Shown here: positions 14,648 to 46,934 of the stretch, piece by piece
Layout: every line of letters begins with the position of its first letter
Numbering within the stretch: position 1 is the stretch's first letter
Assembly (NCBI GenBank): GCA_014729675.1
Contig: WJJM01000039.1
Span: 1,479 to 65,478 of the forward strand
DNA: 64,000 nucleotides
Direction of reading: 5' to 3'
From: Candidatus Woesearchaeota archaeon
Lineage (GTDB): Archaea > Nanobdellota > Nanobdellia > Woesearchaeales > WJKL01
Notes under the pieces: model-generated
The model's database searches: none
Seen by the model: only the letters and a program-made list of their open reading frames with translations
What the model was told of the DNA's origin: nothing
Program-made: the position numbers and the translations under genes

Positions 14648-15274
14648 TTGATAATTGTAATGATGAATCATGATTTTAGAAAAATATTTAAACTGAACAA
14701 GTATCTTTTTATTATGTATGAATTTGAGAATGTAAAGAAGTTTTTTGACATTTCTGATTATAATTATAGTTCCATGTATAAATATATAGAATTGTTTATC
14801 TTTTCTGCTGCAGGATTTTTTATACCTTTTTTTATAGGGCATCCTCAAATAGTTGTGGGGATAATAGTGAACAGTTTTCTGATAAGTTCTTCATTAAAGT
14901 TTAAAGATTATAAGATATTGCCTGTAGTTGTGATGCCTTCATTGGGGGCTTTGTCAAGAGGGTTGTTGTTTGGGCCATATACTCCTTTTTTATTTTATAT
15001 GATTCCTTTTATTTGGATTGGAAATTATCTTTTAGTCTATGCTTTTAGGCAGTTTAAGCTTAAGAAGAAGCTTAATTATTGGCTTAGTCTTGGGATGGGT
15101 ATCGTTTTCAAGGCAGGATTCTTGTTTTTAACTGCTTACATATTCTATATTTTTGGAGTTGTTCCAGCTGTATTTTTGACTGCGATGGGAGTTATGCAGG
15201 CTATAACTGCTTTTGGAGGAGGAGTTGCTGCTTTTGGTTATGAGAAAATCAGCAGATGGGTCAATAGAAGTTAG
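14648..15274 (+). CDS. Integral membrane protein, hypothetical
   Basis: Multiple hydrophobic helices; no motif recognised. Confidence 0.35.
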   Translation: MIIVMMNHDFRKIFKLNKYLFIMYEFENVKKFFDISDYNYSSMYKYIELFIFSAAGFFIPFFIGHPQIVVGIIVNSFLISSSLKFKDYKILPVVVMPSLGALSRGLLFGPYTPFLFYMIPFIWIGNYLLVYAFRQFKLKKKLNYWLSLGMGIVFKAGFLFLTAYIFYIFGVVPAVFLTAMGVMQAITAFGGGVAAFGYEKISRWVNRS

Positions 15275-22989: not shown

Positions 22990-23499
22990 ATTTCCACCTT
23001 ATATTTTTTTTCAGGAGAATAAAGAATTTTTGCTTTATCTCCAGCGTAATCCAGCTTGCACCAGATCACCTCTTGATATTATCAGTTATTTTTGTCTGGT
23101 TTAAAAAGGTTGCTGTTTTTGAGTTGATCTTTGTGATTTACAATTTAATTTGATTATTGTCTGTTGGAGCAAAAATAATTTTAGCTTAAGATTTAATCAT
23201 TATCAATCATTGGTTTGTCGGACACTTTTACAATGACGTTAAGCAGACAAACGTAAAGAAACTTTCGGTTGATAACAATGTCTTTGCATAACAGATAGAT
23301 TTATATGTTTCGGTGTTTTTTATCTTGTTATGGCAGAAAAAGATTTTGTTGAGATGATGCTGAAGAAGGCAAAAGAGAAAAAAGAGACTGAGGCACAGGA
23401 CAGGACAGGGAATACTGGCCACAGGGAGATAGAAGATCTCGTTGAGTCAATAAGAGAATGGAAGCAGAAGAAAAAAGAGTGATTCCAATCAAAACAAAG

Positions 23500-23625
23500 A
23501 AAATAGCCCTGCTGTTTGAACCTGAGGGTTAACACCCTACAGCTACCTGTTGTGGGTTTCGCAGGTGAAAAGTTAGATTCGCTTCGCTCATCTAGAAACC
23601 TGCTCAAGCCCACCAAACAAAGATA
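23500..23625 (-). repeat. tRNA-Gln-flanking conserved element, copy 1 (about 125 nt, immediately 3-prime of tRNA-Gln(TTG) on the minus strand)
   Basis: 97% identical to 24653..24776; proximal end mimics the tRNA T-arm/acceptor 3-prime half (GGTTCAAACAGCAGGGCT vs GGTTCAAATCCGGGCAGGGCT). Confidence 0.55.
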
Positions 23626-23646
23626 ATAAATAAAGAATAAACAAAT

Positions 23647-23740
23647 AGCCCTGCCCGGATTTGAACCGAGGTCCCAGGACCCAAAATCCTGGATGATTGG
23701 CCATTGTGCACAGCTTAAAGCTGTTCTACACTACAGGGCT
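23647..23740 (-). tRNA. tRNA-Gln (anticodon TTG) with a noncanonical 21-nt intron in the D-loop
   Basis: Manual fold: acceptor AGCCCTG/CAGGGCT, anticodon stem CAGGA/TCCTG with loop TTTTGGG, T-arm CTCGG-TTCAAAT-CCGGG. Relative to the paralog at 24794, AACAGCTTTAAGCTGTGCACA is inserted after GTGTAG. Confidence 0.6.
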
Positions 23741-24643: not shown

Positions 24644-24652
24644 GAAAAAAAT

Positions 24653-24776
24653 AAAATAGCCCTGCTGTTTGAACCTGAGGGTTAACACCCTACAGATACC
24701 TGTTGTGGGTTTCGCAGGTGAAAAGTTAGATTCGCTTCGCTCATCTAGAAACCTGCTCAAGCCCACTAAACAAAGA
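24653..24776 (-). repeat. tRNA-Gln-flanking conserved element, copy 2
   Basis: Near-identical to 23500..23625; lies 3-prime of tRNA-Gln(CTG). Confidence 0.55.
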
Positions 24777-24793
24777 CAAAGAATAAAGAAAAT

Positions 24794-24891
24794 AGCTCCG
24801 GGCAGATTTGAACTGCCGTCCACGGATTTCACTTTTGAGCTGGGGGCTCAAAACCAGAGTCCGCGATGATTGGCCACTACACTACGGAGCT
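24794..24891 (-). tRNA. tRNA-Gln (anticodon CTG) with about 26-nt intron at the canonical 37/38 position
   Basis: Acceptor AGCTCCG/CGGAGCT; anticodon stem GCGGA/TCCGT; loop CTCTGG + intron hairpin TTTTGAGC-CCCCA-GCTCAAAA; T-arm GGCAG-TTCAAAT-CTGCC. Confidence 0.6.
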
Positions 24892-24990: not shown

Positions 24991-25446
24991 ATGAATCTTA
25001 GGCTTTTTAAACAGGTTATCAGAAGAAGTAATGCTCTTAGGCAGAAGGCTCAGATAAGCATGGAGTACCTTATCATAGTGGGTTTTGTGGCTGCAGTTAC
25101 TGTTCCTATGATAATAATATTTACAACACATTCTACTGAGATGAATGAGAGCATAATATCAAATGAGGCTGAAAACATAGCTGCAAAGATAGTGGATGCA
25201 GCTGAGTCTGTATATTATCTTGGAGAATTCTCAAAGACCACATTCAGGGTGAGCATGCCTAAGAACATAAATTCTATAACTTTGGGGAATAATGAGGTTG
25301 TTATCTTTGTAGATAAGATGAATGGTTTTGATGAAGTTGTCAAGTACTGTCCTGTACCTATAAACGGAAGTGTGTCCAAGGAGCCGGGACTGTATGACAT
25401 AGTGGTAGAGTCAAGAGGGGATTATGTGTGGGTAGAAAGCAACTAA
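24991..25446 (+). CDS. Type IV pilin-like protein with class III (prepilin) signal peptide
   Basis: Leader ending ...RQKA then QISMEY (Gln+1, Glu+5) followed by hydrophobic helix LIIVGFVAAVTVPMIIIF. Confidence 0.6.
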   Translation: MNLRLFKQVIRRSNALRQKAQISMEYLIIVGFVAAVTVPMIIIFTTHSTEMNESIISNEAENIAAKIVDAAESVYYLGEFSKTTFRVSMPKNINSITLGNNEVVIFVDKMNGFDEVVKYCPVPINGSVSKEPGLYDIVVESRGDYVWVESN

Positions 25447-25835
25447 CTTTATCTGGAAAAGCTCAAGTTTCTATGGAGTTTGTATTTTTGGTGAGTCTGG
25501 CTTTTATGATCATGACGGTATTCATAGCTTCGACAAGAAGCGAGTTTGATGAGTTGAGGAGCGAGGAAGAGAGGACATTGGTCAGGGATGTGGGGATGAT
25601 GGCACATTCTGAACTGGTTATAGCGTCAAATGTTGAGGACGGTTACAGGAGGATCTTTGATATTCCTGAAAAGCTTGACGAATCTATAGAATATGACATT
25701 GAGATATCAAACAATACTCTTTTGGTATATACTGACGATTATGAATCTGTGTTCAATGTGCCTTCAGTCACAGGACAGATACAGAAAGGCAACAACAGAA
25801 TAAACAAGACAGGCGGAACAATATATTTGAATTAA
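25428..25835 (+). CDS. Type IV pilin-like protein with class III signal peptide
   Basis: GTG start; ...SGKA then QVSMEFVFLVSLAFMIMTVF; overlaps preceding pilin gene by 19 nt. Confidence 0.55.
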   Translation: MGRKQLTLSGKAQVSMEFVFLVSLAFMIMTVFIASTRSEFDELRSEEERTLVRDVGMMAHSELVIASNVEDGYRRIFDIPEKLDESIEYDIEISNNTLLVYTDDYESVFNVPSVTGQIQKGNNRINKTGGTIYLN

Positions 25836-25836
25836 G

Positions 25837-26310
25837 ATGGAAAAAAAATCCCAGATATGGTTTACAGATTTTATCATAGGTGTGATGATATTCCTTATAG
25901 TTGTTCTTATATATTATGGGTATTCTTACAGTTTAAACAGTGATCCCGGAGATATCACAAAAGATCTCATAATGGAGGCAAAGAGCATAAGCTCAGCACT
26001 TATCAGCAGGGGTTCTCCTTCAGACTGGAACAAGAGCAATGTGGAGGTTATAGGCCTTACAGACGGGAACCAGAGGATCGTGGAGGAAAAACTGGGAATG
26101 TTTGCAGAGATGGATTATGAAGAGACAAGAGATATATTCAGGACGCCTTATGATTATCATTTTTTTCTCAAGGAAGCAAACGGCAGCATAGTTGATGAAA
26201 ATGGGGAAATTGGCCTTAGTGGGAACAGTTCAGACAATCTTGTTTCCATAACAAGAATAGTTATATACGATTCAAGGCTTGTAAATATGGTGGTGCATGT
26301 ATGGGACTGA
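25837..26310 (+). CDS. Membrane-anchored pilin-like / minor pilin candidate
   Basis: N-terminal KKSQIWFTDFIIGVMIFLIVVLIYYG helix, rest soluble; within pilus locus. Confidence 0.4.
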   Translation: MEKKSQIWFTDFIIGVMIFLIVVLIYYGYSYSLNSDPGDITKDLIMEAKSISSALISRGSPSDWNKSNVEVIGLTDGNQRIVEEKLGMFAEMDYEETRDIFRTPYDYHFFLKEANGSIVDENGEIGLSGNSSDNLVSITRIVIYDSRLVNMVVHVWD

Positions 26311-28196
26311 GAAAAGCCATGTTCTTCACTACAGATGCATTAGTTGCATCATCTATCCTTCTTGGAGGTATATTGATCATATCATCTATATACATAAGTG
26401 AGCAGACCACATCACATCTCAACTATCTTTCTCAGGATATAATAAATTCGTTAGAGGCATTGAAGATAAGGGAGATTAACAACAGCTATGTAGATGAGCT
26501 TGTCAGCAACGGAAATATAACTGACCTTAACAATTCTATACTCCAGCAGGCAGGGGAATTCTGGGCTGAAGATAAGATAGGTCTTGCAAGTGATTTTCTT
26601 GAGAATACAACTGACCAGCTAATCCCTGAAGTTTATGGATTTGGGATATGGATAAACAACGAGCAGATATACAAGAGAGACAACCCGCCTCCAAGATCTA
26701 CATCATCTGCAAAGAAAATAATCAGCGGGATAGACAAGGAAAAACCTATAGACGGTTTCATCTCAAAAGCAAGGGCAAACAACTTTGTAAAAAGAAGTAC
26801 AAGAATAATATCTTTTTCGCCTGAAGGCGCAGGATGGGATGGAAATGACTGGGATAATCCTGGAGAGGCTGTAATAGACAAATATTTTGAGCTTTCTTCA
26901 GGAATGAACATAACAAACTCTACGATGTATGTTTCCCTGCATATAGAGGACGACGGTCCAGACTGGGAGGTTGTAAATATAAACAATGGAACATGCACTG
27001 TAAACAGAGACGAGATAAATTTTTTAGGAGGGGAAGGAACATTTGATATAATAGATGTTTTTGGCTGTATAAATACAGGACAGAACAGCATAAGGCTAAG
27101 GCTCAGGAATCTGGGATATAATGGGCATGTACATCCCGGAATGCTGTTAAGAGTTGATTATACTGTCAATGAGTCAGCCGGTTCATATAATGACAGTTTT
27201 TCAGAAAGATATTTTTTTGACAATGTGGTAAGTAATGAAGGGGCTGACGGAGAGAGTGGGGCATGGAGCATGGTGCCTTTCTTTATCCCTGAGAATGCAG
27301 AGAACATAACTGTCACAGCCCACATCGAGGGAAGAAATATAAGGGATTATACTGGATGGGGATTGTTCTATTCATGGAGCGGATGGAGATGGGCGAGAGA
27401 TTATGACTATATTTTCTTTATAAATGATGATGATTTTTTTGATAGGGATGGGAGTCCTTCTATGAATCCTTCTTATGATTATTCTGCTGAGAATCTTGAA
27501 GATGAGATAGTAGAGGGTACAAATGTTGTCAGTGTATATTTCAACAATTATGCAGACTATGAGTGGGGTTCAGGGCAGCCGCAGATATATTCTGACCCTT
27601 TTGATGACCCTGACGGTTCATCATATATAGAAGTCAATTACACTCTTCCTGAAACCGAAGCCCCTTACGGAAGCATAAAGATAAATGAGATAAAGGAGTT
27701 CGGAGGGTTGGCAAACAGGGAGAAAGAGGAGCATTTTAGCTTTCCTTCACAGGCTGTCCAGATGGGAGAGATTCTTCTTCATCTTGTGCAGCAGTATTCA
27801 TATATTGTGGATGTGTGGGCAAGCACATACAGCCCTGCTGACAATCTTGTATTTTCTGCTCCATCTTCCAGAGCAGTCCCCACTACAATGTTTGTACAGA
27901 ATGATAATTTTGAAATATCATCTTCTGCAAACAATTATGTAAGGGCGAGAGACAGGAACCTTAATGAGATACTTCCTGAAACAGCTGTAGAGTATAATTT
28001 TTATCTTCCTTCTTTTGTAGGCTATGGAGATGTTTTCTCAAGCCAGGAGGGAGCTGAGCAGGATGCTCTTGACAGGCTTAATCAAACTCTTGGAGATTTT
28101 ATATCTTCAGACGATATTCTCGTAGAGTCCAGTGATATGAGAAATGTTCCTACTATGTGGGGTCCTGCTGTGATGGAGGTGAGGGCATGGCACTAG
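26301..28196 (+). CDS. Large N-terminally anchored secreted protein of pilus locus (possible tip adhesin/minor pilin)
   Basis: RKA then MFFTTDALVASSILLGGILII prepilin-like N-terminus; 631 aa; overlaps flanking genes (operon). Confidence 0.4.
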   Translation: MGLRKAMFFTTDALVASSILLGGILIISSIYISEQTTSHLNYLSQDIINSLEALKIREINNSYVDELVSNGNITDLNNSILQQAGEFWAEDKIGLASDFLENTTDQLIPEVYGFGIWINNEQIYKRDNPPPRSTSSAKKIISGIDKEKPIDGFISKARANNFVKRSTRIISFSPEGAGWDGNDWDNPGEAVIDKYFELSSGMNITNSTMYVSLHIEDDGPDWEVVNINNGTCTVNRDEINFLGGEGTFDIIDVFGCINTGQNSIRLRLRNLGYNGHVHPGMLLRVDYTVNESAGSYNDSFSERYFFDNVVSNEGADGESGAWSMVPFFIPENAENITVTAHIEGRNIRDYTGWGLFYSWSGWRWARDYDYIFFINDDDFFDRDGSPSMNPSYDYSAENLEDEIVEGTNVVSVYFNNYADYEWGSGQPQIYSDPFDDPDGSSYIEVNYTLPETEAPYGSIKINEIKEFGGLANREKEEHFSFPSQAVQMGEILLHLVQQYSYIVDVWASTYSPADNLVFSAPSSRAVPTTMFVQNDNFEISSSANNYVRARDRNLNEILPETAVEYNFYLPSFVGYGDVFSSQEGAEQDALDRLNQTLGDFISSDDILVESSDMRNVPTMWGPAVMEVRAWH

Positions 28197-29143
28197 GAAA
28201 AAAAGGTGTGTTTTTTACTTTTGTGGCAGTTGTCTTTCTCTCACTGCTTATCTTTTCTTTGTCAGTAGGAAATAACTATCGGCTCAGGCAGAGAACATTT
28301 GCTCTTGAGACAAGGATAGACAGCATGAGCAAGTTTATCTCAAATATCGAAAACGATATGGAAAGAGGCATATATATCTCGGGATTCAGAGCATTGATAT
28401 GTCTTGAAGAACATGTTATAGAAAACGGAGAGTATCTTGATGATCTTGATTCTAGTTTTAGGGAGATGTTCTTCAATGGGACTGTCAACAGTACAAATTC
28501 TTCTCTTATGATAAACAATACATTTACAGATTGGATGGAGAATATAAAGACAGAGGCAGACAAGATAGATATAATATTGAACATATCTGTAAAGAACATA
28601 AGCCTGTACCATGATAATCCATGGCAGGCAAGGATAGATGTCGAGGCTGAAACAACAATACATGACAAGAAACAGACATCAAGCTGGACAAGAGACAAGA
28701 ACATAACTGCATATATAGATCTTGAGGGTTTTGAGGATCCATTCTACAGATTGGGAACAAACGGTCTTATGGAAAATAGGATAGAAAGGAAAAACCACAG
28801 CCAGCTTGTTTTAGGAACAGATATCTCTAATCTTCTTGATCATTGCGAAAAGGGGGATTATATAGCTTTCAGCGGAGCTCCAAGCTTCCTTATGAGGCTT
28901 GAAGGAAATTTTTCAGAGTCAGAGTATGGGATCGAGAGTCTCGTAGATATAGAAGAGCTTGAGCTTATCGGGCTTACACCTAAAGACAAGAGCATAGTGG
29001 ATCACATCTATTTTGGAGCTGAAGATCCTGATAAATATCATATACAGGGGGCACCTTCCTGGTTTGAACTGGACAATGGGACAAACATGAACGGAAGCAT
29101 ACATAGGCATGAAGCTTATGAAGTTGAAGATATTGTAGGTTAA
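28157..29143 (+). CDS. N-terminally anchored pilus-locus protein (minor pilin candidate)
   Basis: GKKG then VFFTFVAVVFLSLLIF prepilin-like N-terminus (alternative ATG start at 28187). Confidence 0.4.
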   Translation: MGSCCDGGEGMALGKKGVFFTFVAVVFLSLLIFSLSVGNNYRLRQRTFALETRIDSMSKFISNIENDMERGIYISGFRALICLEEHVIENGEYLDDLDSSFREMFFNGTVNSTNSSLMINNTFTDWMENIKTEADKIDIILNISVKNISLYHDNPWQARIDVEAETTIHDKKQTSSWTRDKNITAYIDLEGFEDPFYRLGTNGLMENRIERKNHSQLVLGTDISNLLDHCEKGDYIAFSGAPSFLMRLEGNFSESEYGIESLVDIEELELIGLTPKDKSIVDHIYFGAEDPDKYHIQGAPSWFELDNGTNMNGSIHRHEAYEVEDIVG

Positions 29144-29226
29144 GAAAATGCAGTATAGACGTACACTTAGGAGATTATTGGCAAAAAGAAAGCTTTTAAA
29201 TATGAATTTAGATATTATCAGTTAAT

Positions 29227-30399
29227 ATGGGAAAAAACACTATCCAGACAGATATAGATAATCTTGTTTCTGTTGTCCAGGAGCAGGAAAGGATATCTGT
29301 GAAGGATGCTGCAAAAAGGCTTAATGTTCCTGAAGAGACAGTAAGTGAATGGGCAAGTTTTCTTGAAGAGGAAGGTATAATAAATATAGAATACAAGTTC
29401 ACAAAGCCTTTTCTTGTAAAGAAAAAGCTTACTCCTGAGCAGTTGGACAATCTTAAAAGTGAAGTCAAGGAAGAGAAAGGCATATTTGACAGGAAAAGTA
29501 AATCTACACTGAATTATCTGAATAAGCTTGAGACTGAGGTTGATTCTCTGAAGGATATGTTCAATGATCTTGGGAATCATTTTAACAAGAGGCTTTCAGG
29601 GGTAAAAGGGGAACTCAAGCAGTTAAAGAAGATGGAAGATGAGAAGGAGAATCTCAATAAAGACATCCTTGAATCTAAACAGGAATTTATGAAGAAGATA
29701 TCTGATATAAACAAGCAGCTGTATTCTCAGGAGAAGAACTATAAAGAAATGTATGATGTTCTTTGCAGCCAGGCAAAGGTCGGAAGCGAGATCCTTAGCA
29801 TACAGGAAGACGAGATGGATTTTATAAAACAGACAGACAAGATGATCAGCAAGAAGCTAAAAAGCATAAAGAAAAAGCTTGATAAGAAGAAAAAAGGCAA
29901 AAAGAGCAAAAGCAAGGAAAAGCTTACAAAGGAGTCTGAGTCAGAACTGAAGGCGCTTGAGAAAAAATATGAGGAGCTCAGGGATTTTCTTGATAAGGAA
30001 AAAAATATGATGGAGTCACTTATAGACGAGAACAAGAAACAGGAATCAGAGATGGACAAGCTTAACAAGGACATTCTTGGGAAGGTAAAGAAAAGCGGCA
30101 CATTAATAGATTCAAAACTTAAGGAAGTAGAAGAGATACCCAAGAAATTCAAGATATTTATGAAGAAGAAAGATAAGATACTCAAGATGCTGGACCATAT
30201 AAGCTATAATGAAGGGATACTGAAAAAGAAGCTTAATGATCTGGTGAAAAAAGGTTCTGCCCTGGATCTCACAGGGAATCCGGATGATGTCATGGAAGAG
30301 ATAAAGGATCTTGAGGAAGAACTTGATGATCTTTCAAAGAAAAAAGGCACATTTGAAAAAGAGATTAAAAAGATTTTTAAACTGTTGCATCTAAAGTAG
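29227..30399 (+). CDS. Coiled-coil protein (K/E-rich) with N-terminal helix-turn-helix-like segment, pilus-locus associated
   Basis: Long heptad-like K/E/L repeats across about 300 aa; sits immediately upstream of FlaI-like ATPase. Confidence 0.4.
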   Translation: MGKNTIQTDIDNLVSVVQEQERISVKDAAKRLNVPEETVSEWASFLEEEGIINIEYKFTKPFLVKKKLTPEQLDNLKSEVKEEKGIFDRKSKSTLNYLNKLETEVDSLKDMFNDLGNHFNKRLSGVKGELKQLKKMEDEKENLNKDILESKQEFMKKISDINKQLYSQEKNYKEMYDVLCSQAKVGSEILSIQEDEMDFIKQTDKMISKKLKSIKKKLDKKKKGKKSKSKEKLTKESESELKALEKKYEELRDFLDKEKNMMESLIDENKKQESEMDKLNKDILGKVKKSGTLIDSKLKEVEEIPKKFKIFMKKKDKILKMLDHISYNEGILKKKLNDLVKKGSALDLTGNPDDVMEEIKDLEEELDDLSKKKGTFEKEIKKIFKLLHLK

Positions 30400-30416
30400 G
30401 TTAAAAGGGGTGTAGT

Positions 30417-32063
30417 ATGGCAAAAAAGAGGAAAAAAAGAGCTTCAGCAAAATCAAGGTCCAGCCATAGGCATATTTCTAGAAAGAATCAAAAAGATCAA
30501 AAGATCCATAAGACAAAACACAGCATGAAAAGCAAGCATGTTTCAAAACAAGGATCCAAAAAAAAGGAAAGCGGCAAGACTGGATCAAATATAAAACTTC
30601 TAAATTCATATAATATCCGTTCAGGAGGCATACCTGTAACAGTTAAGATATATTCTCAAGAAGATGAGTTTGTACCTTTATATACTGTCCAGCTTTCTAC
30701 TCTGGGAAAGACTACAGCTATGATGCTGGAGAAGATAAGGGAGGAGCTTATCGACAGGGTAAATCTGGGGATTGTAGATATTTCTGACAAGAAAAATGCA
30801 GACATTGCTGAGAAGAAATTTTCTGAGGCTACACTTACACTGATAAAGAAATATTTTCCAAGCCTTGATGCTGAGACAGAAAGGTTTCTTACATCTTATC
30901 TTGTGAAGAAAAGTTTAGGGATGGGTGATCTTGAACTTCTTATGAGCGATGCAAATCTTGAAGAGATAGCTGTAAATTCTGCAAGCGAGCCAATATGGGT
31001 GTATCATAAGCAGTTCGGTTGGCTAAAGACAAATATTATACTTGATAATGAAGCCCAGGTGCAGCATTATGCTACTATGATAGGAAGAAGGGTAAACAGG
31101 CAGATAACAGTACTTGAGCCCCTGATGGACGCTACTCTTCTTACAGGGGACAGGGTGAATGCAACACTTAATCCTATATCTTCCACAGGAAATACCATAA
31201 CTATAAGAAAGTTCGCAGCCCAGCCCTGGACAATAACAGATTTTTTAAGGGTAAGGAGCATATCTCCAAGCGCAGCTGCTTTGATATGGGAATGTGTTCA
31301 TTATGAGATGTCAGGGCTGATAGCAGGAGGAACTGCTTCTGGAAAGACAAGTATGCTGAATGTGGTGAGTAATTTTTTCCCGCCTAACCAAAGGATAATA
31401 AGCATAGAGGATACAAGAGAGATAAAGCTGCCTAAGTTTCTGCATTGGGTGCCAATGGTTACAAGGCTGGCTAATAATGAAGGGAAGGGAGAAGTAACTA
31501 TGCTTGATCTTCTTGTGAATAGCCTTAGGATGAGGCCGGACAGGATAATAGTCGGGGAGATAAGAAGGAAAAAGGAAGCAGAGGTACTTTTTGAATCAAT
31601 ACATACAGGGCACAGTGTATATGCAACTGTTCATGCGAACAATACAGAAGAGACCATAACAAGGCTGACAGCTCCGCCTATAGAGGTGCCGAAAAGCATG
31701 CTTCCAGCAGTGTCTATGCTCATAGTCCAGTACAGGAACAGAAGGTCAGGACTTAGGAGGACGTTTGAGTTTTCTGAGATAAAGAAAGACGGAGATCCTA
31801 ATGTTTTGATGAGATATGATGTTTCAAAAGATGTACTACAGAGAAAGTCAAATTCAGTAGCTATAAGGGACAATCTTGAACTTTATACAGGGGCATCCCG
31901 CAGCAGCATAAAAAAGGAGCTGGCAGAAAAAGAATCTGTGCTTAAGTGGCTTGTAAAGCAAAAGATAAATTCTGTAGACAGTGTAGGAAGAGTGATGGCA
32001 GAGTACTATACAAATAAAGACCATCTTATGAAGATTGTAAGATCAAACAAGCCTTTGAGGTGA
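30417..32063 (+). CDS. Type IV pilus/archaellum assembly ATPase (FlaI / PilB / TadA / VirB11 family)
   Basis: GGTASGKTS Walker A; IISIEDTREIKLP and RPDRIIVGEIR (Asp/His boxes) typical of secretion ATPases; basic low-complexity N-terminus. Confidence 0.8.
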   Translation: MAKKRKKRASAKSRSSHRHISRKNQKDQKIHKTKHSMKSKHVSKQGSKKKESGKTGSNIKLLNSYNIRSGGIPVTVKIYSQEDEFVPLYTVQLSTLGKTTAMMLEKIREELIDRVNLGIVDISDKKNADIAEKKFSEATLTLIKKYFPSLDAETERFLTSYLVKKSLGMGDLELLMSDANLEEIAVNSASEPIWVYHKQFGWLKTNIILDNEAQVQHYATMIGRRVNRQITVLEPLMDATLLTGDRVNATLNPISSTGNTITIRKFAAQPWTITDFLRVRSISPSAAALIWECVHYEMSGLIAGGTASGKTSMLNVVSNFFPPNQRIISIEDTREIKLPKFLHWVPMVTRLANNEGKGEVTMLDLLVNSLRMRPDRIIVGEIRRKKEAEVLFESIHTGHSVYATVHANNTEETITRLTAPPIEVPKSMLPAVSMLIVQYRNRRSGLRRTFEFSEIKKDGDPNVLMRYDVSKDVLQRKSNSVAIRDNLELYTGASRSSIKKELAEKESVLKWLVKQKINSVDSVGRVMAEYYTNKDHLMKIVRSNKPLR

Positions 32064-32095
32064 TATGAATCTTTGACTCAACATCTGAGAGAATA

Positions 32096-32884
32096 GTGCA
32101 GTCCATCCCTTCTCTTAAATTCAAGCTTAAGCAGGCAGGGATGAAGGATAATCCTGTCAGTTTTGTAAAAAAGACGTTGTTTACATCTTTTTATATGACT
32201 ACAGGGCTTATACTCGTAGCTCTTGCTATGCTTTCAGAAAAAATAGTCCTGATGATAATACTTATCCTTCTTTTCCCTTTGATATTTGCATTGATGTTCT
32301 TTTATTTTGTGAAGCTTCCAGATATGAAGATAATAAAGAAGAGGAAGGCGATAGACAGAGAGGTTGTATATGCAGGAAGATTTTTGATAGTGGAACTAGA
32401 GTCAGGAGTGCTGCTGTATAAGGCTATGGCAAATGTCGCTGAAAGCTATGAGGAGATAGGCAAGGCTTTCCAGGATATAATAACAAGCGTAGATCTTGGA
32501 ACAAGCATAGAAGATGCTTTGAATCACACTGTAGAGTTTACACCTTCTCCAGATTTCAGGAGACTTCTTTGGCAGATAATAAATGCCCTGAAGACAGGTT
32601 CAAATGTTTCTGAGTCTCTTAAGTCTGTTGTAGAGCAGATAACAAAGGAGCAGACTATAGAGATCAAGACATATGCAAGAAAACTTAATCCATTTGCTAT
32701 GTTTTATATGATCATAGCTGTGATACTCCCTTCACTGGGAATAACCATGCTTATAGTATTGTCAAGTTTCTTGTCCATAAACCTAAGCCTTCCTATACTT
32801 ATAGCTGTTGCAGTCATGCTAGGGATACTTCAGCTGATATTTTATGTTGTTATAAAATCTTCAAGACCTGCGGTGAGCGTATGA
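32096..32884 (+). CDS. FlaJ/TadC-like polytopic membrane protein (T2SS-F domain), first half of split platform protein
   Basis: TM helices flanking a cytoplasmic helical domain; 4-nt overlap with next gene. Confidence 0.55.
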   Translation: MQSIPSLKFKLKQAGMKDNPVSFVKKTLFTSFYMTTGLILVALAMLSEKIVLMIILILLFPLIFALMFFYFVKLPDMKIIKKRKAIDREVVYAGRFLIVELESGVLLYKAMANVAESYEEIGKAFQDIITSVDLGTSIEDALNHTVEFTPSPDFRRLLWQIINALKTGSNVSESLKSVVEQITKEQTIEIKTYARKLNPFAMFYMIIAVILPSLGITMLIVLSSFLSINLSLPILIAVAVMLGILQLIFYVVIKSSRPAVSV

Positions 32885-33933
32885 AATTTTTCCAGAAGAT
32901 AAAGGAAAAAATTGAGAAAAAGAAGAAGAAAAAGCTTGAGAAAAAGTTAAAGAGGCAGACAAAGCATTATATGCTTGACCAATACCTGAAAAAGGCAGGT
33001 ATAAGCATACAATCCCATCTACTGTCCAGAGGACTTTTTAAGTTTATACTCTTTATAAATATCATATTATCTATCTATGTGCTTTTCCTTCTGGCTTCAA
33101 AAGGAGGATATCCTCTTGCATATATAATATTCATAATACTGCTGATATGGGTGTTTGCATTTTTCCTTTTTTTAGGAGTGGTGTGGCTTGGGTTCTATAT
33201 ATTTATCGACTGGAGGATATTCCAGAGAAAACTCAGTATAGAAGAGGTTCTTCCTGATTTTCTTTATCTTACTGCAACCAATATAAGGAGCGGGATGACT
33301 ATAGACAAGGCATTGTGGGTAGCTGTAAGGCCCAGGTTTGGAGTGCTGGCCAGAGAGATAGAGACAGTCTCAAAAGAAGTGATGAGCGGAAAAGAGCTTA
33401 CAGATTCCTTGCAGGCATTTGCAGACAAGTATGAGTCTGATATTTTGAAAAGAAGTATAAATCTTCTCATAGAAGGTATAAAAAGCGGTGGAGAGATAGG
33501 GGAATTGTTAAACAGGATAGCGACAAACATACAGGAAAGCAGAATAATGAGAAAAGAGATGGCTGCAAATGTCATGACCTATGTCATCTTTATAACTTTT
33601 GCAGCTATAGTTGCAGCTCCTGCATTGCTTGCTTTGGCAAGCCAGCTTATAATGATAATAGGGAACTTAACTTCAAGGTTAGATGTCCCTGCAACAGGAA
33701 GCATGATGTTTTCCCTGACTGAAGTTGCTGTTACTCCAGGAAACTTTAAGATATTCTCTTATATATCTTTGTCTATGACAGCTTTCTTTTCAGCTATAAT
33801 AGTGGCAACAATACAGAAAGGAAATGTTAAAGAAGGATTGAAGTATATTCCTATCTTTATAGCTGTGGCTATTAGTCTGTTTATAGCATTTTCTTATATA
33901 ATGGATAAAGTGCTTAGCGGAATATTTGTTTGA
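32881..33933 (+). CDS. FlaJ/TadC-like polytopic membrane protein (T2SS-F domain), second half
   Basis: Same architecture as preceding ORF; together about 610 aa, matching the size of a single FlaJ. Confidence 0.55.
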   Translation: MKFFQKIKEKIEKKKKKKLEKKLKRQTKHYMLDQYLKKAGISIQSHLLSRGLFKFILFINIILSIYVLFLLASKGGYPLAYIIFIILLIWVFAFFLFLGVVWLGFYIFIDWRIFQRKLSIEEVLPDFLYLTATNIRSGMTIDKALWVAVRPRFGVLAREIETVSKEVMSGKELTDSLQAFADKYESDILKRSINLLIEGIKSGGEIGELLNRIATNIQESRIMRKEMAANVMTYVIFITFAAIVAAPALLALASQLIMIIGNLTSRLDVPATGSMMFSLTEVAVTPGNFKIFSYISLSMTAFFSAIIVATIQKGNVKEGLKYIPIFIAVAISLFIAFSYIMDKVLSGIFV

Positions 33934-34007
33934 GGTTTATTTAGAAATATTTATATAAGGTTATATGTTTTTTATTCTAAAATAATTATAAATGAGGTGC
34001 ATAGATA

Positions 34008-35876
34008 ATGAAAAAACTAGTTTTAATGTTAAGTTTGATTTTAATGATGAGTTCTTTTGCTTTTGCAGCTGGAAATGATGTAGATACTGTGTTATTATTG
34101 CACATGGATGGTGATGAAAGTGCATCTGAACATGTTGCTACTGTTAATGGTGACCCAGTTCTTGATGCTGGAGAGTATAAGTTTGATGGAAGTATGTATT
34201 TTGATGGTTCTGATGATTATTTGGCTGTTGCTGACAGCACTGATTGGAATTTTGGCTCAAATGACTTCACTATAGATTTTTGGGTTAATTTTGACCAGCT
34301 TACAGTGCATGATGCTGGACTTCAAACACTAATATCTTCAGGAACAGATTATGGTAGCAATTACTGGGCTTTGATGTATGGTGATGGTACTTATCCTACA
34401 AATACTGGAATTGGTTTTATAGATAAAGGGCAGGGAATAGAAGATTGTTTCCAAGGGGATCAGGATGGATGGAATGCAGAAACATGGTATCATATAGCTT
34501 TAGTTAGTTCTGGTAATACCCTTACAATCTATCGTAATGGGGTTGCTGTTCATTCGTGTAGCATTGGCAGTCTTACTGATTACAATTCTCCTATAAGGAT
34601 TGGCTCAAACCCTGAAGCAAGAAGAGAGTTTGGAGGATACATCGATGAACTAAGGATATCAAACAATGCACGCTGGACATCAGACTTTTCTTCAAGCTTG
34701 CCAAGCTCACCTTACACAGCAGATGCTAACACTAAATTATTATTAAGTCTTGATGGAGATGTTGCTGAAGGTGCATCAAATGATCATGATGTGACTTTCC
34801 ATGGTAATATTAAAATGAATGCAACAGAAAAACCTTCATCTGATTTTGAGGGCAGTTATTATTTTGACGGCAGTGATTTTTTGACAATACCTGATGACCC
34901 AGAAATTGAACTTGGAAGTGATGATTTTACAATTGACTTCTGGTTCAAAAGATTTGGCGGACATGGAAGTTTGGATGTCATCTTAGCAAAACAGGATGAT
35001 GGCCATACAAATGACCATTCGTATGGTATTAATTTTGGCACAGGAAATGAATTAAGTGCACAAATCTCTGATTCCAGCAGTTACAATACAGTTACATCAA
35101 CAACTTTATTTGGTTCAGGTGATACTGACTGGCATCATGTTTCTTTTATCCGTGAAGGTAGTAGAATGCTGCTTTACATAGATGGAATTTTAGAAGATAA
35201 TTTAACTGCGTCTGTAACTTCACAAGACACAAGTTATCCTTTGACAATCGGTAGATATGGTCAGACTAATTACTATTATACAAACTCATTTATTAGTGAT
35301 TTGAGGATAGTCAAAGGCGAAGCAATTATTCCTCCGGCTGGAGGTCCTACTGGTCCTTATGATGATTCAACTCCATGTACAGATGTAGATGATGATGACT
35401 ACTGTGATGAAGCAGAAATTTCTGGATGTGATAATACTATTTGTCCAACAGGATGGGATGACTGTGATGACAATACAGGGGATGATCCAACAGGATGTGC
35501 AAGTGCAACATGTACATTCAATTCAGGGTTAAGATTGTACAATGGAACTGGCTGCGCTAAATGTAAGTATGTACTAAGAGACGGACTTTGGCTTGATGAT
35601 AACTTGGATTACACAAAGGATGTACCTGGTTCAACAGATGATGTTTGTACAAGCAATGCATATAATGTTGATATGACTGCTTATGGAGGACCTTCATCTG
35701 CAGTTTATTATATGGGTTCAGCAAGTCCTGATGAGCAATATGCAGATCCTGCAAATGAACCTTTTAATTCAGGCGGAGAAGGAAATGGAGTTCCTGAGTT
35801 CTCATCTATAGGGATGGTTCTTGCACTGCTTATAGCTGGATTAGGAATAGTGTTCGTTATAAAGAAAAGAAGATAA
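34008..35876 (+). CDS. Secreted LamG/concanavalin-like lectin-domain protein with PEF-CTERM anchor
   Basis: GAGGTG SD; signal peptide; two LamG-like modules (DFTIDFWVNF...WYHIALVSSGNTLTIYRNG); Cys-rich region; C-terminal GNGVPEFSSIGMVLALLIAGLGIVFVIKKRR. Confidence 0.65.
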   Translation: MKKLVLMLSLILMMSSFAFAAGNDVDTVLLLHMDGDESASEHVATVNGDPVLDAGEYKFDGSMYFDGSDDYLAVADSTDWNFGSNDFTIDFWVNFDQLTVHDAGLQTLISSGTDYGSNYWALMYGDGTYPTNTGIGFIDKGQGIEDCFQGDQDGWNAETWYHIALVSSGNTLTIYRNGVAVHSCSIGSLTDYNSPIRIGSNPEARREFGGYIDELRISNNARWTSDFSSSLPSSPYTADANTKLLLSLDGDVAEGASNDHDVTFHGNIKMNATEKPSSDFEGSYYFDGSDFLTIPDDPEIELGSDDFTIDFWFKRFGGHGSLDVILAKQDDGHTNDHSYGINFGTGNELSAQISDSSSYNTVTSTTLFGSGDTDWHHVSFIREGSRMLLYIDGILEDNLTASVTSQDTSYPLTIGRYGQTNYYYTNSFISDLRIVKGEAIIPPAGGPTGPYDDSTPCTDVDDDDYCDEAEISGCDNTICPTGWDDCDDNTGDDPTGCASATCTFNSGLRLYNGTGCAKCKYVLRDGLWLDDNLDYTKDVPGSTDDVCTSNAYNVDMTAYGGPSSAVYYMGSASPDEQYADPANEPFNSGGEGNGVPEFSSIGMVLALLIAGLGIVFVIKKRR

Positions 35877-36008
35877 TCTTCTTTTTTCTTTTTATTTTTT
35901 TAAATATCCATATGAAGAGAACAAGTTCTCAGATATAAATATCCTGGAAATCTAATTTCCATAATATTTATATATAGCTTATCATTTAATAGTCTAAGAG
36001 GTGTTAAT

Positions 36009-36491
36009 GTGATAAGATATCAGAAAGATAAATTTCCTGAGTATGTTCAAAATCTTAGATTTTGCAAGAAAGCACAAGCAGCGATGGAGTTCTTGATGAC
36101 TTACGGCTGGGCTTTACTTGTAGTGCTGGCAGCTATAGGAGCATTAGCATATTTTGGAGTGTTGAGTCCTGGGAAGTTTGTTCCTGATCAATGCGTTTTA
36201 GTTCCTGGATTAGCATGTTTAGATTCGAGTGTTACAAGCAGTGAGATAAATCTAGTTTTGGCAAACAGCCTTGGAAGAGATATACAGGTTAATGGATTGA
36301 GTGTTGGAGGATGCAATAAGACTCTTGATGTGCTGTTTGAAAATGGAGATAAAAGGACATTCAATATAACTGGCTGTGATAATGGAGAACCAGAAGAGAA
36401 GTTTTCAGGAGATATAATTATAGATTATACTAACAGAGATTCAGGGCTTTCAAAGACTATAACCGGAAAGTTGACATCTAAGGTACAATGA
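36009..36491 (+). CDS. Type IV pilin-like protein with class III signal peptide
   Basis: GAGGTG SD then GTG; ...CKKA then QAAMEFLMTYGWALLVVLAAIGALAYFG. Confidence 0.6.
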   Translation: MIRYQKDKFPEYVQNLRFCKKAQAAMEFLMTYGWALLVVLAAIGALAYFGVLSPGKFVPDQCVLVPGLACLDSSVTSSEINLVLANSLGRDIQVNGLSVGGCNKTLDVLFENGDKRTFNITGCDNGEPEEKFSGDIIIDYTNRDSGLSKTITGKLTSKVQ

Positions 36492-36760
36492 TATCGTCAA
36501 GAAACGATATGTTAGTATGGTATATAACCAGTTTGATAGTTCTTGTTGTAGCTGTAAGTGGATTGTATGGTTTTGGGATGTTTGGTTCAGAAGATTCTTT
36601 GTTTCAAGAAAACAGGGTAACTGCTGCTGCAGTAAAGGTTCCAAGCCAGAATAATCCTGTTGAAGATGATATTTGTGATGAAGAAAACATCACCAACACT
36701 ATAGAGAAACCAAGTCTTGAAGATGAGCAGGAAGAAGTTATGCAGTATGATGGAAGCTGA
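36488..36760 (+). CDS. Small N-terminally anchored acidic protein, hypothetical
   Basis: ORF with TM helix then D/E-rich tail; 4-nt overlap with pilin gene. Confidence 0.3.
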   Translation: MISSRNDMLVWYITSLIVLVVAVSGLYGFGMFGSEDSLFQENRVTAAAVKVPSQNNPVEDDICDEENITNTIEKPSLEDEQEEVMQYDGS

Positions 36761-36969
36761 ATTTTATTTTGATTGTTCAAATTAGATTTTATATCTTGCA
36801 GCCTGCTTTGGTCAGGAATTTTTATTATCTCCTTGCTATCAAAAATAATTCTAAAAATTAATCGAAACATTTATATATCAGTATAGTAATGTGTATACTA
36901 TTTTGGTAGTTATAAACTATCAAAAGAACAGCAAATCAATTTTATTTGCAAACAAAGAGGTGAAAACAA

Positions 36970-37407
36970 ATGTATAAGAAAGCACAGGCGGCAATGGAGT
37001 TCTTAATGACTTATGGTTGGGCCATATTAGTAGTATTAGCAGCTATAGGCGCTTTGGCATATTTCGGAGTTCTTAGTCCGGACAGGTTCTTGCCAGAGAA
37101 ATGTACATTGCCATCAGGAATTGCGTGCCTGGATTTCAGGTATAGCGGAACTGCAATAGAGATGTCTATACAGAATGGAGCAGGATTTGACATGACTAAT
37201 GTTAGTGTTGAGGTAAATGGAACTGGATGCCAAGCAACAGATTCAACAACACAAACTACACTGACAAATGGTCAGAAAGCAACTTATAGTGTTACATGCA
37301 GTCCAAGTTCTGGTAAGTTTAAAGGAGATGTAACCTTTGACTATACAAACCAGGCAACAGGAATGCCGCATACTAAAGTTGGTGAGATTATCCTGAAGAT
37401 ACCATAA
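36970..37407 (+). CDS. Type IV pilin-like protein with class III signal peptide (short leader MYKKA)
   Basis: AGAGGTG SD; MYKKA then QAAMEFLMTYGWAILVVLAAIGALAYFG; paralog of 36009 gene. Confidence 0.65.
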   Translation: MYKKAQAAMEFLMTYGWAILVVLAAIGALAYFGVLSPDRFLPEKCTLPSGIACLDFRYSGTAIEMSIQNGAGFDMTNVSVEVNGTGCQATDSTTQTTLTNGQKATYSVTCSPSSGKFKGDVTFDYTNQATGMPHTKVGEIILKIP

Positions 37408-44876: not shown

Positions 44877-46934
44877 ATGTGCGGGATAATAGGAGTATTT
44901 AATCGCAAGGATAGTGTCAAGTTAGTTGAATCTGGATTGAAAGTTATATCTTATAGAGGAAAGGATCATACAGGAGGGTCTAAAGTTAATGATGGATGCA
45001 TAGGCCATTGCCTTCATTCTGTTGTTGATTCAGTGAAACAGCCGATAGATGGCAGATTTACAGTTAACTGCGAAGTTTATAATTGGAAGGAGTTGGATGA
45101 TAAATATTCTTTAGAAGCTAAGAATGATGCAGATATGCTTTTCAATCTTCTTGAAAAAAAAGGCGTATCTGAAGAAGTTCTTGATGAGCTTGATGGAGTT
45201 TATGCTTTTGCCTATGTTAAAGATAATAAATTATATATTGCAAGAGATATAATAGGGATAAAGCCAGTTTGGTATAGTCATTCTGAAGGATTTGCATTTG
45301 CTTCTGAGAAGAAGGCTTTGGAGTCTATTGGTTATATAGATATTGTTGAGCTTAATCCAAGAAAGATTATAGAGTATGATATTGTATCTGATAGATTGTC
45401 TTTTGTTGAAAGAGATTTTTTTTCTATAAAGCCTGAGCTGAAGGAGAGTAAAGAAGGGATTATAAATAGGCTTAGCAGGCTGCTTGATGATGCTGTATCT
45501 AAGAGGATCCCTTCAAGGAAATTTGGATTGTTATTTTCCGGAGGAGTAGATAGTACATTTTTGGCTATGATGCTGAAGAATAAAGGATATGATTTTACAT
45601 GCTATACAGCTGTATTGGATCATCCAGATTTTAGGGTTCCTGAAGATTTGATTTATTCTAAGAAGATTGCAGATTCTTTAGGTCTTGATCTGAAAGTTGT
45701 GAAGATCAAGCTTGATGATATTGAAGAGTATATTAAAAAAATTGTTCCCCTTATCGAGAATTCAAATGTTGTTAAGGTTGGAGTGGCTTTAACTTTTTTT
45801 AAGGCATGTGAGGAAGCTTCTAAAGATGGATGTAAGGTAATCTTTTCTGGGTTAGGTTCAGAGGAGATATTTGCAGGATATGAAAGGCACAAGAATTCAA
45901 GAAACATAAACGAAGAATGCGTTTCTGGATTATTGAAGATGTATGAAAGAGATCTTTATAGGGATGATGTTATAACGATGTTCAACAGTCTTGAATTAAG
46001 GGTCCCTTTTTTAGATAAAAGATTAGTTGAATATTCTTTGAAAATTCCTGAGAAGTTTAAGCTGACTTCTTCAAACAATAAGATGATATTTCGTGATGTT
46101 GCTCTTGATATGGGGCTTTCAGAAGAGTTTGCTTTAAGAGGAAAGAAAGCTGCGCAGTATGGGAGTAATTTTCATAAGTCATTGGAGAAACTGGCTAAGA
46201 AAAATAAGTTTAAGTATATTTCTGAATATTTGCGCCAGTTTTATCCAGGGCATAATGTCAAGTTAGGAGCATTAGTCAGCAGTGGAAAGGATTCAATATA
46301 TGCTATGCATGTCATGATGAGGCAGAACTATAAGATAAACTGTATGATAAGCCTTTTTAGCTCTAATCCTGATTCTTATATGTTCCATACGCCTGCTGTT
46401 GATCTTGTCAATCTGCAGGCTGAGTCTATAGGCCTGCCTTTATTGCAGTTTAAGACTGAAGGGAAGAAAGAAGATGAGCTTGAAGATCTTAAGAAAGCAC
46501 TTCTAAAGGCTAAGGAAGAATATTGTATTGAAGGGATTGTTACAGGAGCTTTGTTTTCCAACTATCAAAGAGAGAGGATAGAAAAGGTTGCAGATTCTTT
46601 GGGATTGAAGATATTTGCTCCTTTGTGGCATATCAACCAGGAGACAGAGATGAGAGAGATAATTGATAATGGTTTTAAGTTTATAATCGTAAAAGTTATG
46701 GCTGACGGGCTGGATAAAAGCTGGTTGGGAAGAGTTATTACAGATGAAGATGTTGATAGATTGGTTGAGTTGGATTCAAAAATGGGTTTTAATGTCGCTG
46801 GAGAGGGTGGCGAGTACGAGACACTTATGATAGATGGGCCAATATTTAATAAAAAGATAAAGATTGTTGAAAGTTCTACTGAAGAAGAATCTTCTATTGT
46901 TGCTGAGCTGAAGATTGAGAGGGCTGAATTATAA
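44877..46934 (+). CDS. Three-domain fusion: class-II glutamine amidotransferase + AsnB-type PP-loop synthetase + Dph6-type diphthine-ammonia ligase PP-loop domain
   Basis: MCGIIGVF (Ntn Cys1); FSGGVDSTFLA (first PP-loop); VSSGKDSIYAMHV...EGIVTGALFSNYQRERIEKVADSLGLKIFAPLW (MJ0570/Dph6-like second PP-loop). Confidence 0.55.
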   Translation: MCGIIGVFNRKDSVKLVESGLKVISYRGKDHTGGSKVNDGCIGHCLHSVVDSVKQPIDGRFTVNCEVYNWKELDDKYSLEAKNDADMLFNLLEKKGVSEEVLDELDGVYAFAYVKDNKLYIARDIIGIKPVWYSHSEGFAFASEKKALESIGYIDIVELNPRKIIEYDIVSDRLSFVERDFFSIKPELKESKEGIINRLSRLLDDAVSKRIPSRKFGLLFSGGVDSTFLAMMLKNKGYDFTCYTAVLDHPDFRVPEDLIYSKKIADSLGLDLKVVKIKLDDIEEYIKKIVPLIENSNVVKVGVALTFFKACEEASKDGCKVIFSGLGSEEIFAGYERHKNSRNINEECVSGLLKMYERDLYRDDVITMFNSLELRVPFLDKRLVEYSLKIPEKFKLTSSNNKMIFRDVALDMGLSEEFALRGKKAAQYGSNFHKSLEKLAKKNKFKYISEYLRQFYPGHNVKLGALVSSGKDSIYAMHVMMRQNYKINCMISLFSSNPDSYMFHTPAVDLVNLQAESIGLPLLQFKTEGKKEDELEDLKKALLKAKEEYCIEGIVTGALFSNYQRERIEKVADSLGLKIFAPLWHINQETEMREIIDNGFKFIIVKVMADGLDKSWLGRVITDEDVDRLVELDSKMGFNVAGEGGEYETLMIDGPIFNKKIKIVESSTEEESSIVAELKIERAEL

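Follow-up and report, generated by a model that had tools for sequence, protein, structure and literature searches.

A predicted type IV pilus locus of mixed character in a Candidatus Woesearchaeota archaeon

DPANN archaea are thought to live attached to hosts, and pili are prime candidates for making this contact; no DPANN pilus has yet been characterised at the molecular level. Here we ask what kind of system is encoded by positions 24991-37407 of a 64-kb stretch of DNA (64,000 nucleotides, referred to as a whole as the window) from a Candidatus Woesearchaeota archaeon (GenBank assembly GCA_014729675.1, contig WJJM01000039.1), a very small organism that probably depends on a host. An initial annotation had described this region as a complete, Tad/Aap-like type IV pilus locus; with several corrections, this description proves correct for the most part. 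Our analysis makes it very probable that the genes specify an archaeal type IV pilus, both its machinery and its subunits, of a form typical of Woesearchaeota-like DPANN. It is an ordinary kind of system from an understudied lineage, with a mosaic classification and one uncharacterised conserved component, a coiled-coil protein called F below. The parts list, all of which is currently annotated as hypothetical, comprises two candidate major pilins, five candidate minor or tip proteins including a possible modular adhesin, an ATPase, a platform in two parts, and F.

The locus, its motor and its prepilins

The type IV pilus reading is carried by an ATPase of the T2SSE family with intact motifs, by two platform proteins with one T2SSF domain each, by conserved class III-like N-termini in seven proteins (A, B, C, D, E, K and M), and by the synteny of the locus. 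The initial annotation was borne out in its identification of prepilins of class III, of an ATPase from the FlaI/TadA superfamily and of a platform encoded by two genes. The region holds thirteen open reading frames (ORFs), all on the + strand and all at the coordinates listed in the initial annotation, which we labelled A to M (aa, amino acids).

A, 24991..25446, +: prepilin, 151 aa; minor pilin candidate (direct read, orthologue motif)
B, 25428..25835, +: prepilin, 135 aa; minor pilin candidate and distant paralogue of A (direct read, hhalign)
C, 25837..26310, +: pilin-like protein, 157 aa; DUF7287 member (PF23958)
D, 26301..28196, +: large modular pilin-like protein, 631 aa; candidate tip adhesin
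E, 28187..29143, +: pilin-like, 318 aa counted from the ATG; may be the initiating or the tip-most subunit
F, 29227..30399, +: cytoplasmic protein, 390 aa; predicted winged helix and long coiled coil (AlphaFold2 model, synteny)
G, 30417..32063, +: pilus assembly ATPase, 548 aa (T2SSE)
H, 32096..32884, +: platform protein, equivalent of the N-terminal half, 262 aa, one T2SSF domain (PF00482)
I, 32881..33933, +: platform protein, equivalent of the C-terminal half, 350 aa, one T2SSF domain (PF00482)
J, 34008..35876, +: Sec-secreted protein with two LamG domains and PEF-CTERM; genome-specific insertion (Laminin_G_3)
K, 36009..36491, +: prepilin, 160 aa, 22-aa leader; major pilin candidate
L, 36488..36760, +: small ORF, 90 aa, one transmembrane helix, overlapping the K stop codon; status uncertain
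M, 36970..37407, +: prepilin of 145 aa with a 5-aa leader; candidate major pilin, paralogous to K

Genes A to I lie close together, either overlapping or separated by no more than 83 nt (F is within the operon, 17 nt from G), and an AT-rich spacer lies 5' of both K and M. Neither Rfam nor tRNA scans gave a hit within the locus, and a scan with bacterial sigma-70 promoter and terminator models was set aside because the organism is an archaeon. For L, family scans found no family, and tblastn matches came from only 4 close relatives.

The order A-B-C-D-E-F-ATPase-platform-platform-pilin-pilin is kept in dozens of contigs of metagenome-assembled genomes (MAGs) from Woesearchaeota and Aenigmatarchaeota; synteny among DPANN relatives was one of the checks that the initial annotation had proposed. 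Relatives of G with 54-86% identity were found in about 65 loci of Woesearchaeota, Nanoarchaeota and Aenigmatarchaeota MAGs. Among 78 related loci, many of them on truncated contigs, G was present in 78, H in 75, I in 71, F in 58, K/M in 54, E in 36, D in 35, C in 28, A in 27 and B in 25. One woesearchaeal subgroup carries a KaiC-family ATPase ahead of the pilus operon (L012, 314-2359; 166 bits), together with a second KaiC/DUF7504-type protein and a small protein with about 3 predicted transmembrane (TM) segments. The same KaiC arrangement is seen in L010, L013, L014, L017, L018, L056 and L070, and it recalls the association of KaiC/FlaH with archaeal type IV pili (Makarova 2016).

The motor ATPase G matches T2SSE (PF00437) with 115.5 bits, and its Walker A (GGTASGKT), Asp box (IIVGEIR) and His box (GHSVYATVH) are all intact. 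The best NCBIfam model for G is FlaI (268 bits, cutoff 550), ahead of the TadA-family model (184 bits, cutoff 373) and the model of the bindosome ATPase BasE (158 bits, cutoff 1000), and the closest protein in the PDB is the Archaeoglobus fulgidus secretion ATPase 2oap (251 bits), followed by FlaI (194) and CpaF (157). The PilB3_C domain scores below threshold in G itself (18.4 bits, threshold 27), while 28 of its 36 orthologues examined match it (best E 1.8e-8); PilB3_N was not detected in G. The first ~60 residues of G form a disordered tail rich in Lys and Arg (23 K/R against 2 D/E; window 30417-30600), and most orthologues carry such a basic disordered tail of 40-200 residues, which in one subgroup contains a conserved VKVTGLPPI motif.

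The platform proteins H and I match PF00482 with 67 and 61 bits, H aligning with residues 35-246 of the 484 of UpsF and I with residues 330-554 of the 555 of ArlJ/FlaJ. Their genes overlap by ATGA and the proteins are only 21% identical. Wherever a locus has both H and I, the two are encoded separately (151 members, 76 loci). On this ground and because of the low identity, a recent frameshift or pseudogene could be ruled out as the origin of the split, and the two-gene platform is ancient and universal in the lineage rather than an oddity. The two overlapping ORFs of the 'split FlaJ' in the initial annotation were read correctly; the split is no peculiarity. Two platform genes with one T2SSF domain each are known from Epd-like and Tad systems, where they were attributed to an ancient gene fission (PMC6668835), and the arrangement was also noted for numerous loci of the euryarchaeal clades 1 and 2 (PMC4858521).

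The four small proteins A, B, K and M share a processing motif with a hydrophobic helix after it. Read directly, and with a slash at the predicted cleavage site, the sites are RQKA/QISMEYLIIVGF in A (cleavage predicted after K19-A20, giving a mature protein with Q+1, E+5 and Y+6), SGKA/QVSMEFVFLVSL in B, CKKA/QAAMEFLMTYGW in K and MYKKA/QAAMEFLMTYGW in M, so that the cores are KA/QISMEY in A, GKA/QVSMEF in B and KA/QAAMEF in both K and M. In a six-frame translation of the 64 kb, a pattern consisting of [KR][GAS]Q...E[FY] and six hydrophobic or small residues gave exactly four matches, each at the start of one of these genes, where 0.005 were expected (mean of 200 Markov-1 randomisations); no further motif-bearing ORF appeared in the window. 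The motif is also conserved among orthologues, which sustains the claim that these four proteins share it: the K/M family reads KK[AGS]/QAAMEFLMTYGW (Q+1 and E+5 each in 80 of 83 members, F+6 in 75 of 83), the 27 orthologues of A read K[SAG]/QVSxEY (Q+1 and E+5 each in 22/26, Y+6 in 20/26), and those of B read [KR][AS]/QISxEF (Q+1 and E+5 each in 19/23). All four proteins fit a FlaFind-type pattern at the predicted site.

The four prepilins had been presented as paralogues of one another. By sequence comparison they are two pairs, A/B and K/M, rather than four equal paralogues: A and B are homologous over ~108 columns (hhalign probability 97%), K and M are ~50% identical, and K/M share no more than the first 27 residues with A. 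With 5923 database clusters at E<=1e-3, the family of K and M is very large; the first ~35 residues of the mature proteins are almost invariant and four Cys are conserved. A family of this size with a near-invariant N-terminus is as expected of a main structural subunit. After the stop codon of J, a T-rich tract is followed by a TATA-like box and a GGTG ribosome-binding site 5' of K. We regard K and M as candidate major pilins, each with its own putative promoter, and A and B as candidate minor pilins. Some members of the K/M family carry the JGI name 'UPF0333 family', which probably denotes the DUF361 group; a literature search on UPF0333 found nothing. In four loci of one subgroup (L047, L049, L061 and L073) an extra, divergent K/M-like pilin gene (QVAMEY...) lies between E and F. 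Profile searches of the K/M, A, D and E families against PDB sequences gave nothing significant, the match of K/M to an archaellin chain being marginal (E 0.055).

The coiled-coil protein F

What does the conserved gene directly upstream of the ATPase encode? F occupies this position in all 58 loci that carry it. In the AlphaFold2 model (predicted local distance difference test score 76), a winged helix spans residues 9-65 and three helices come after it (70-219, 234-344 and 352-388), of which the first and second are joined by a Lys-rich loop; the modelled coiled coil would be ~40 nm long. The head is conserved (W42, L46 and E41/E48/E49 are invariant) and the coiled coil poorly so. A profile of the winged helix collected 2281 cluster representatives (50% identity), 756 of them at E<=1e-10 and most of them ~380 aa long. 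No dedicated Pfam family exists for F, which gave only weak matches to generic helix-turn-helix (HTH) families, and searches against the PDB returned generic coiled coils and generic structures but no specific relative, in line with the earlier statement that this 390-aa protein lacks a characterised equivalent.

Since the head is a winged helix, F might be an ordinary transcription factor that regulates the pilus operon. This is unlikely, though by no means far-fetched: weak Pfam matches to HTH_24 and DeoR-type domains, Foldseek matches between the head and AspA as well as repressors of the ArsR, MarR and ROK types (E ~5e-3), and the NCBI name of one orthologue ('winged helix-turn-helix transcriptional regulator') all point in this direction, and many regulators were listed inside archaeal type IV pilus loci by Makarova et al. 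(PMC4858521). However, the helix in the usual DNA-contacting position is acidic in 40 of 40 orthologues (net charge -2 to -7, mean -4.5), a feature that speaks against DNA as the partner and in favour of a protein. In addition, ~320 of the 390 residues form a poorly conserved coiled coil, which is atypical of a repressor, and the gene lies inside the operon, 17 nt 5' of the ATPase gene. By analogy, the likeliest role of F is that of a scaffold that serves the ATPase in the cytoplasm, and not DNA binding; its head may have the basic tail of G as partner. A metagenomic protein of 657 aa (P0205; L079, 227-2200) carries five tandem F-type winged-helix heads; it lies on a 2.9-kb contig, which makes its context uninformative.

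The larger pilin-like proteins, prepilin processing and gene J

The initial annotation had also seen prepilin-like N-termini in three larger anchored proteins, C, D and E, and this was upheld by a conserved [KR][GAS] immediately before the hydrophobic helix in nearly all orthologues and by an Asp at +6 in C and D. The site of C reads KKS/QIWFTDF (Ser at -1, Q+1, D+6; family K[AGS]/QxWxxDF) and that of D reads RKA/MFFTTDAL (family [KR][GA]/[IVL]FFTxDAL, with D+6 in 27 of 28). E has KKG/VFFTF, with no acidic residue at +5 or +6, and 37 orthologues with K[GAS]/[IV]F[FY]T. The ORF of E opens with a GTG at 28157, the position listed earlier; its start is most likely the ATG at 28187 (MALGKKG/VFFTF). 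C matches DUF7287 (PF23958; 31.3 bits, threshold 27), as do 10 of 26 members of its family (best E 4.5e-9), and a literature search on DUF7287, DUF7288 and DUF7289 found nothing. E has no Pfam, NCBIfam or PDB relatives and none that are detectable outside the lineage.

D is identical (100%) to NCBI GF336_04205, annotated as 'hypothetical protein'. Its structure model is confident and modular, with beta-sandwich modules that resemble sugar-binding domains, and its long orthologues contain VWA domains. Other large surface proteins are encoded in the window. A 1990-aa protein at 1002-6974 (+), 18 kb from the pilus locus, is anchored at its N-terminus and combines SBBP beta-propeller repeats with a LamG domain and two DUF2341 domains, and its N-terminus falls outside the class III pattern; giant DUF2341 proteins are predicted tip adhesins of clade 1 (Epd) pili (Makarova 2016). 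Two adjacent surface proteins of 750 and 368 aa, rich in PKD, cadherin-like and Big_9 domains (53270-56652, -), are further adhesin candidates.

It is quite improbable that C, D and E are instead uncleaved type II membrane proteins with a signal-anchor helix, for example parts of a membrane assembly or anchoring complex. None of the three fits the strict FlaFind-type pattern at the proposed site, which makes their cleavage less certain, none matches a pilin Pfam family, and C of the window has Ser at -1. Against this stand the [KR][GAS] right before the helix in all three families, the Q+1 that C shares with the true pilins, and the near-invariant Asp+6 within the hydrophobic helix of C and D, which is hard to explain for a simple anchor; C is also a member of DUF7287, which in a pilus locus of haloarchaea is among the genes that come after those of the ATPase and TadC. 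An invariant Asp inside a hydrophobic helix, combined with the Q+1 of C, argues for pilin-like subunits.

Cleavage would require a prepilin peptidase. As stated in the initial annotation, none is encoded in the window: Pfam scans of all large ORFs of the 64 kb gave no Peptidase_A24, and tblastn with three woesearchaeal A24 peptidases gave a best E of 0.74. The word 'complete' was therefore an overstatement. Three relatives have a gene for an A24 peptidase (PF01478, 36-49 bits) in divergent orientation upstream of A (L038, 2569-3447, -; L042, 1-532, -; L051, 2002-3129, -), so that the peptidase of the present archaeon is expected elsewhere in its genome. These locus-adjacent peptidases are 292-375 aa long, with 7-8 crude TM segments and a soluble insert; FlaK is their best NCBIfam model (36-51 bits, cutoff 330), and Arc_PepC_II matches weakly. 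The dedicated peptidase EppA of Epd-like pili has 9 TM segments.

Gene J had been noted as a PEF-CTERM LamG protein between the pilin pairs. Its features were confirmed: two LamG domains (Laminin_G_3, 121 bits), a Sec-type signal and a C-terminus with VPEFSS, a TM segment and a KKRR tail. It is no part of the conserved system, since none of the 78 related loci has an in-locus orthologue, and this ruled J out as a pilus component. The sole tblastn match, with 26% identity, fell within L007's D-long ORF, which lies upstream. The close relative L063 has the same flanking genes, and there K comes directly after I; together with the absence of J from the relatives' loci, this identifies J as an insertion. 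Elsewhere in the window, a 351-aa protein with 7 transmembrane segments and an LGCSG motif (6980-8035, -) scores 19.3 bits with the exosortase/archaeosortase model TIGR04178 (cutoff 23), and is a candidate archaeosortase for J and for the PEF-CTERM protein at 125-946 (+).

Relation to known pilus systems and alternative readings

To which of the known pilus types does the locus belong? Many of its traits recall the EppA-dependent (Epd) pili of Methanococcus maripaludis, i.e. clade 1 of Makarova or 'System 1' of Sivabalasarma & Albers. The combination of Q+1 and E+5 is the signature of the EppA-processed Epd pilins (PMC3875500), which are short-leader prepilins, as A, B, K and M are here; two adjacent platform genes with one T2SSF domain each (PMC6668835; 2026 preprint bioRxiv 10.64898/2026.04.22.720090), many minor pilins beside the major one, and large adhesin-like proteins with class III signals are further likenesses. 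There are differences as well. The major candidates here have 145-160 aa with a globular four-Cys domain, whereas the Epd major pilin is a short, ~70-aa helix-only protein (~60-75 aa precursor) without such a domain, and PF04021 is unmatched by K/M and below threshold in A/B. At the end of the leader, Ala or Ser is as frequent as Gly, the platform follows the ATPase rather than preceding it, and the genes for EppA, MinD/FleN and DUF2341 proteins are not inside the locus. Finally, most ATPase orthologues have a PilB3-type C-terminal domain and F has no reported Epd counterpart. PilB3_C and the similarity to 2oap point, indirectly and from sequence, away from clade 1 for G, and nothing found here ties G to it. 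System 1 was reported in DPANN, without a description of the present gene set (bioRxiv 10.64898/2026.04.22.720090).

For clade 2, exemplified by the PilB3-C3 system of Haloferax volcanii with its PilA pilins and by PilB4-type loci, a plasmid-borne pilus locus of Halobaculum halophilum (L080) served as control. This locus has a Pilin_N pilin (81 bits), an ATPase with both PilB3_N and PilB3_C, and one two-domain TadC, which is followed by DUF7287 and then by DUF7288, DUF7261-like, DUF7266 and DUF7289 proteins. The woesearchaeal locus shares with this clade a PilB3_C-like domain in most orthologues of the ATPase, a DUF7287 protein (C), a euryarchaeal enzyme (that of A. fulgidus) as closest solved ATPase, and several pilin-like genes in a tight operon. 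It differs from the haloarchaeal side, where a single long TadC has two T2SSF domains, the much longer ATPase has PilB3_N, and the Pilin_N (PF07790) pilin lacks Glu+5 (PMC3875500). Of the clade 2 accessory set (DUF7287, DUF7288, DUF7261, DUF7266 and DUF7289) only the first has a match here, namely C; hhalign found no similarity of A, B, D, E or K/M to the other four families, and no signal between the window families and haloarchaeal Pilin_N proteins.

Bacterial Tad/Flp pili (type IVc) resemble the locus in the succession of an ATPase and two single-domain platform genes, in Glu+5 followed by Tyr or Phe at +6 (the EY found in 20/26 of the A family resembles the 'EY' motif of Flp), and in adhesion as the likely function. 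In contrast, a short Flp pilin, TadZ, the secretin RcpA and TadD-G were not detected here, the pilins are not short Flp peptides, and CpaF is further from G than are the archaeal ATPases. The order of the platform halves also differs, as H corresponds to the N-terminal half and the first Tad gene, TadB, is reported to be C-terminal-half-like. The Aap pili of Sulfolobus are likewise archaeal adhesive type IV pili with an ATPase, a platform and pilins, but they are set apart by their description with a single platform gene and the accessory protein AapX, and by their pilins, which like those of Haloferax are reported to lack Glu+5 (PMC3875500). Of the earlier label 'Tad/Aap-like', an Epd/Tad-like character therefore stands for the pilin N-terminus and the platform, and the comparison with Aap falls.

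Taken with these Epd/Tad-like traits, the PilB3-like C-terminal domain on G and the membership of C in DUF7287 make the locus a mosaic, which is best described as a distinct DPANN variant mixing Epd/Tad-like and euryarchaeal clade 2 traits. These mixed features bear on the kinship of the archaeal pilus types and bacterial Tad, which was proposed to derive from an archaeal Epd-like ancestor (PMC6668835). A bolder and rather doubtful extension is that the locus represents a phylum-wide DPANN pilus lineage intermediate between clade 2 and the Epd/Tad branch, which may combine a clade-2-type ATPase, a DUF7287 protein, a split platform and Q+1/E+5/[YF]+6, with F as a previously undescribed cytoplasmic tether that holds the ATPase by its basic tail and would be a functional analogue of FlaX, FlaCDE or PilM-type scaffolds. 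If true, such a lineage would be informative on the archaeal ancestor proposed for bacterial Tad pili.

How might such a pilus be assembled? In the scheme that we propose, an A24 peptidase encoded elsewhere would cut after [KR][GAS] and expose Gln+1, and Glu+5 (Asp+6 in C and D) would pair with the N-terminus of a neighbouring subunit in the helical core, as modelled on bacterial type IV pilins and Epd pilins. The products of the tight, overlapping operon A-E would form a minor-pilin complex for initiation and at the tip, in which E, without an acidic residue, might sit at the very tip by analogy with GspK of bacterial type II secretion pseudopili, and D, with its modules resembling sugar-binding domains, would act as adhesin. 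G docked on H/I would then polymerise the major pilins K and M. F would be a cytoplasmic scaffold whose coiled coil oligomerises beneath the platform and whose acidic head binds protein, possibly the K/R-rich tail of G. The role of the pilus would most likely be attachment to a host cell or a surface.

Several points weigh against the type IV pilus reading. A and B match the Class_IIIsignal family PF04021 with ~17 bits (A 17.3), under its gathering threshold of 23.7, none of 38 K/M members matches it, and Pilin_N (PF07790) has no match in any of the seven pilin or pilin-like proteins. For A, B, D, E, F and K/M, our searches brought up no homologue whose structure is solved or that has been characterised. 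Prepilin processing is deduced from the motif since no peptidase lies in the window, and C, D and E, which deviate from the strict FlaFind-type pattern, could be uncleaved membrane-anchored proteins. The tip-complex, adhesin and scaffold roles and the F-G contact are drawn from analogy and charge complementarity, and the pilus itself is predicted from genes.

The same machinery could also build a short pseudopilus for DNA uptake or for protein export or display, as in a competence pilus, type II secretion or a bindosome, and could thereby provide a DPANN cell of reduced metabolism with nucleotides or substrates. All type IV filament machines have in common an ATPase, a platform and several minor pilins (PMC6668835), pilin and competence genes occur together in ultra-small groundwater organisms (PMC9938205), archaeal type IV filaments were proposed to be widely adapted to substrate binding (bioRxiv 10.64898/2026.04.22.720090), and the BasE model does match G. 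We nevertheless regard this as quite improbable, because Pfam scans of the locus and window gave no ComEC, no DprA and no substrate-binding protein with a class III signal, because the BasE score is far under its cutoff and also below those of the FlaI and TadA models, and because two highly conserved, separately promoted major pilins and an adhesin-like D fit an extended filament better. That the locus encodes an archaellum for motility is very improbable: FlaI is the best NCBIfam model for G, I matches ArlJ/FlaJ models and K/M show the marginal archaellin match, but the FlaI score is far under its equivalog cutoff, Pfam and NCBIfam scans found no archaellin, FlaH, FlaF/G or FlaC/D/E/X family, and the closest solved ATPase is the non-archaellar 2oap.

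Three further features of the window stand apart from the type IV pilus locus. A 685-aa ORF at 44877-46934 (+), alone and 7.5 kb from the locus, fuses an asparagine-synthase-like amidotransferase to Diphthami_syn_2; a PP-loop ATPase belonging to the diphthamide synthase family was noted in clade 1 pilus loci (Makarova 2016). Upstream of gene A, a direct repeat of 146 nt (95% identical, minus strand, 23492-23637 and 24645-24790) directly follows two minus-strand tRNA genes (23646-23715 and 24793-24891), one of them a tRNA-Gln and one intron-containing, the latter missed by ARAGORN and found by Rfam with 44.8 bits. The repeat has a moderately stable stem (z ~-2) and a T-run at its end, matched no Rfam family, and might represent either a small RNA linked to the tRNAs or a 3' trailer that is conserved. 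Lastly, a three-gene [FeFe]-hydrogenase cluster at 11371-14848 (-), with HydA-like large, NuoF-like and 2Fe-2S thioredoxin-like subunits, suggests fermentative H2 metabolism in this DPANN genome.

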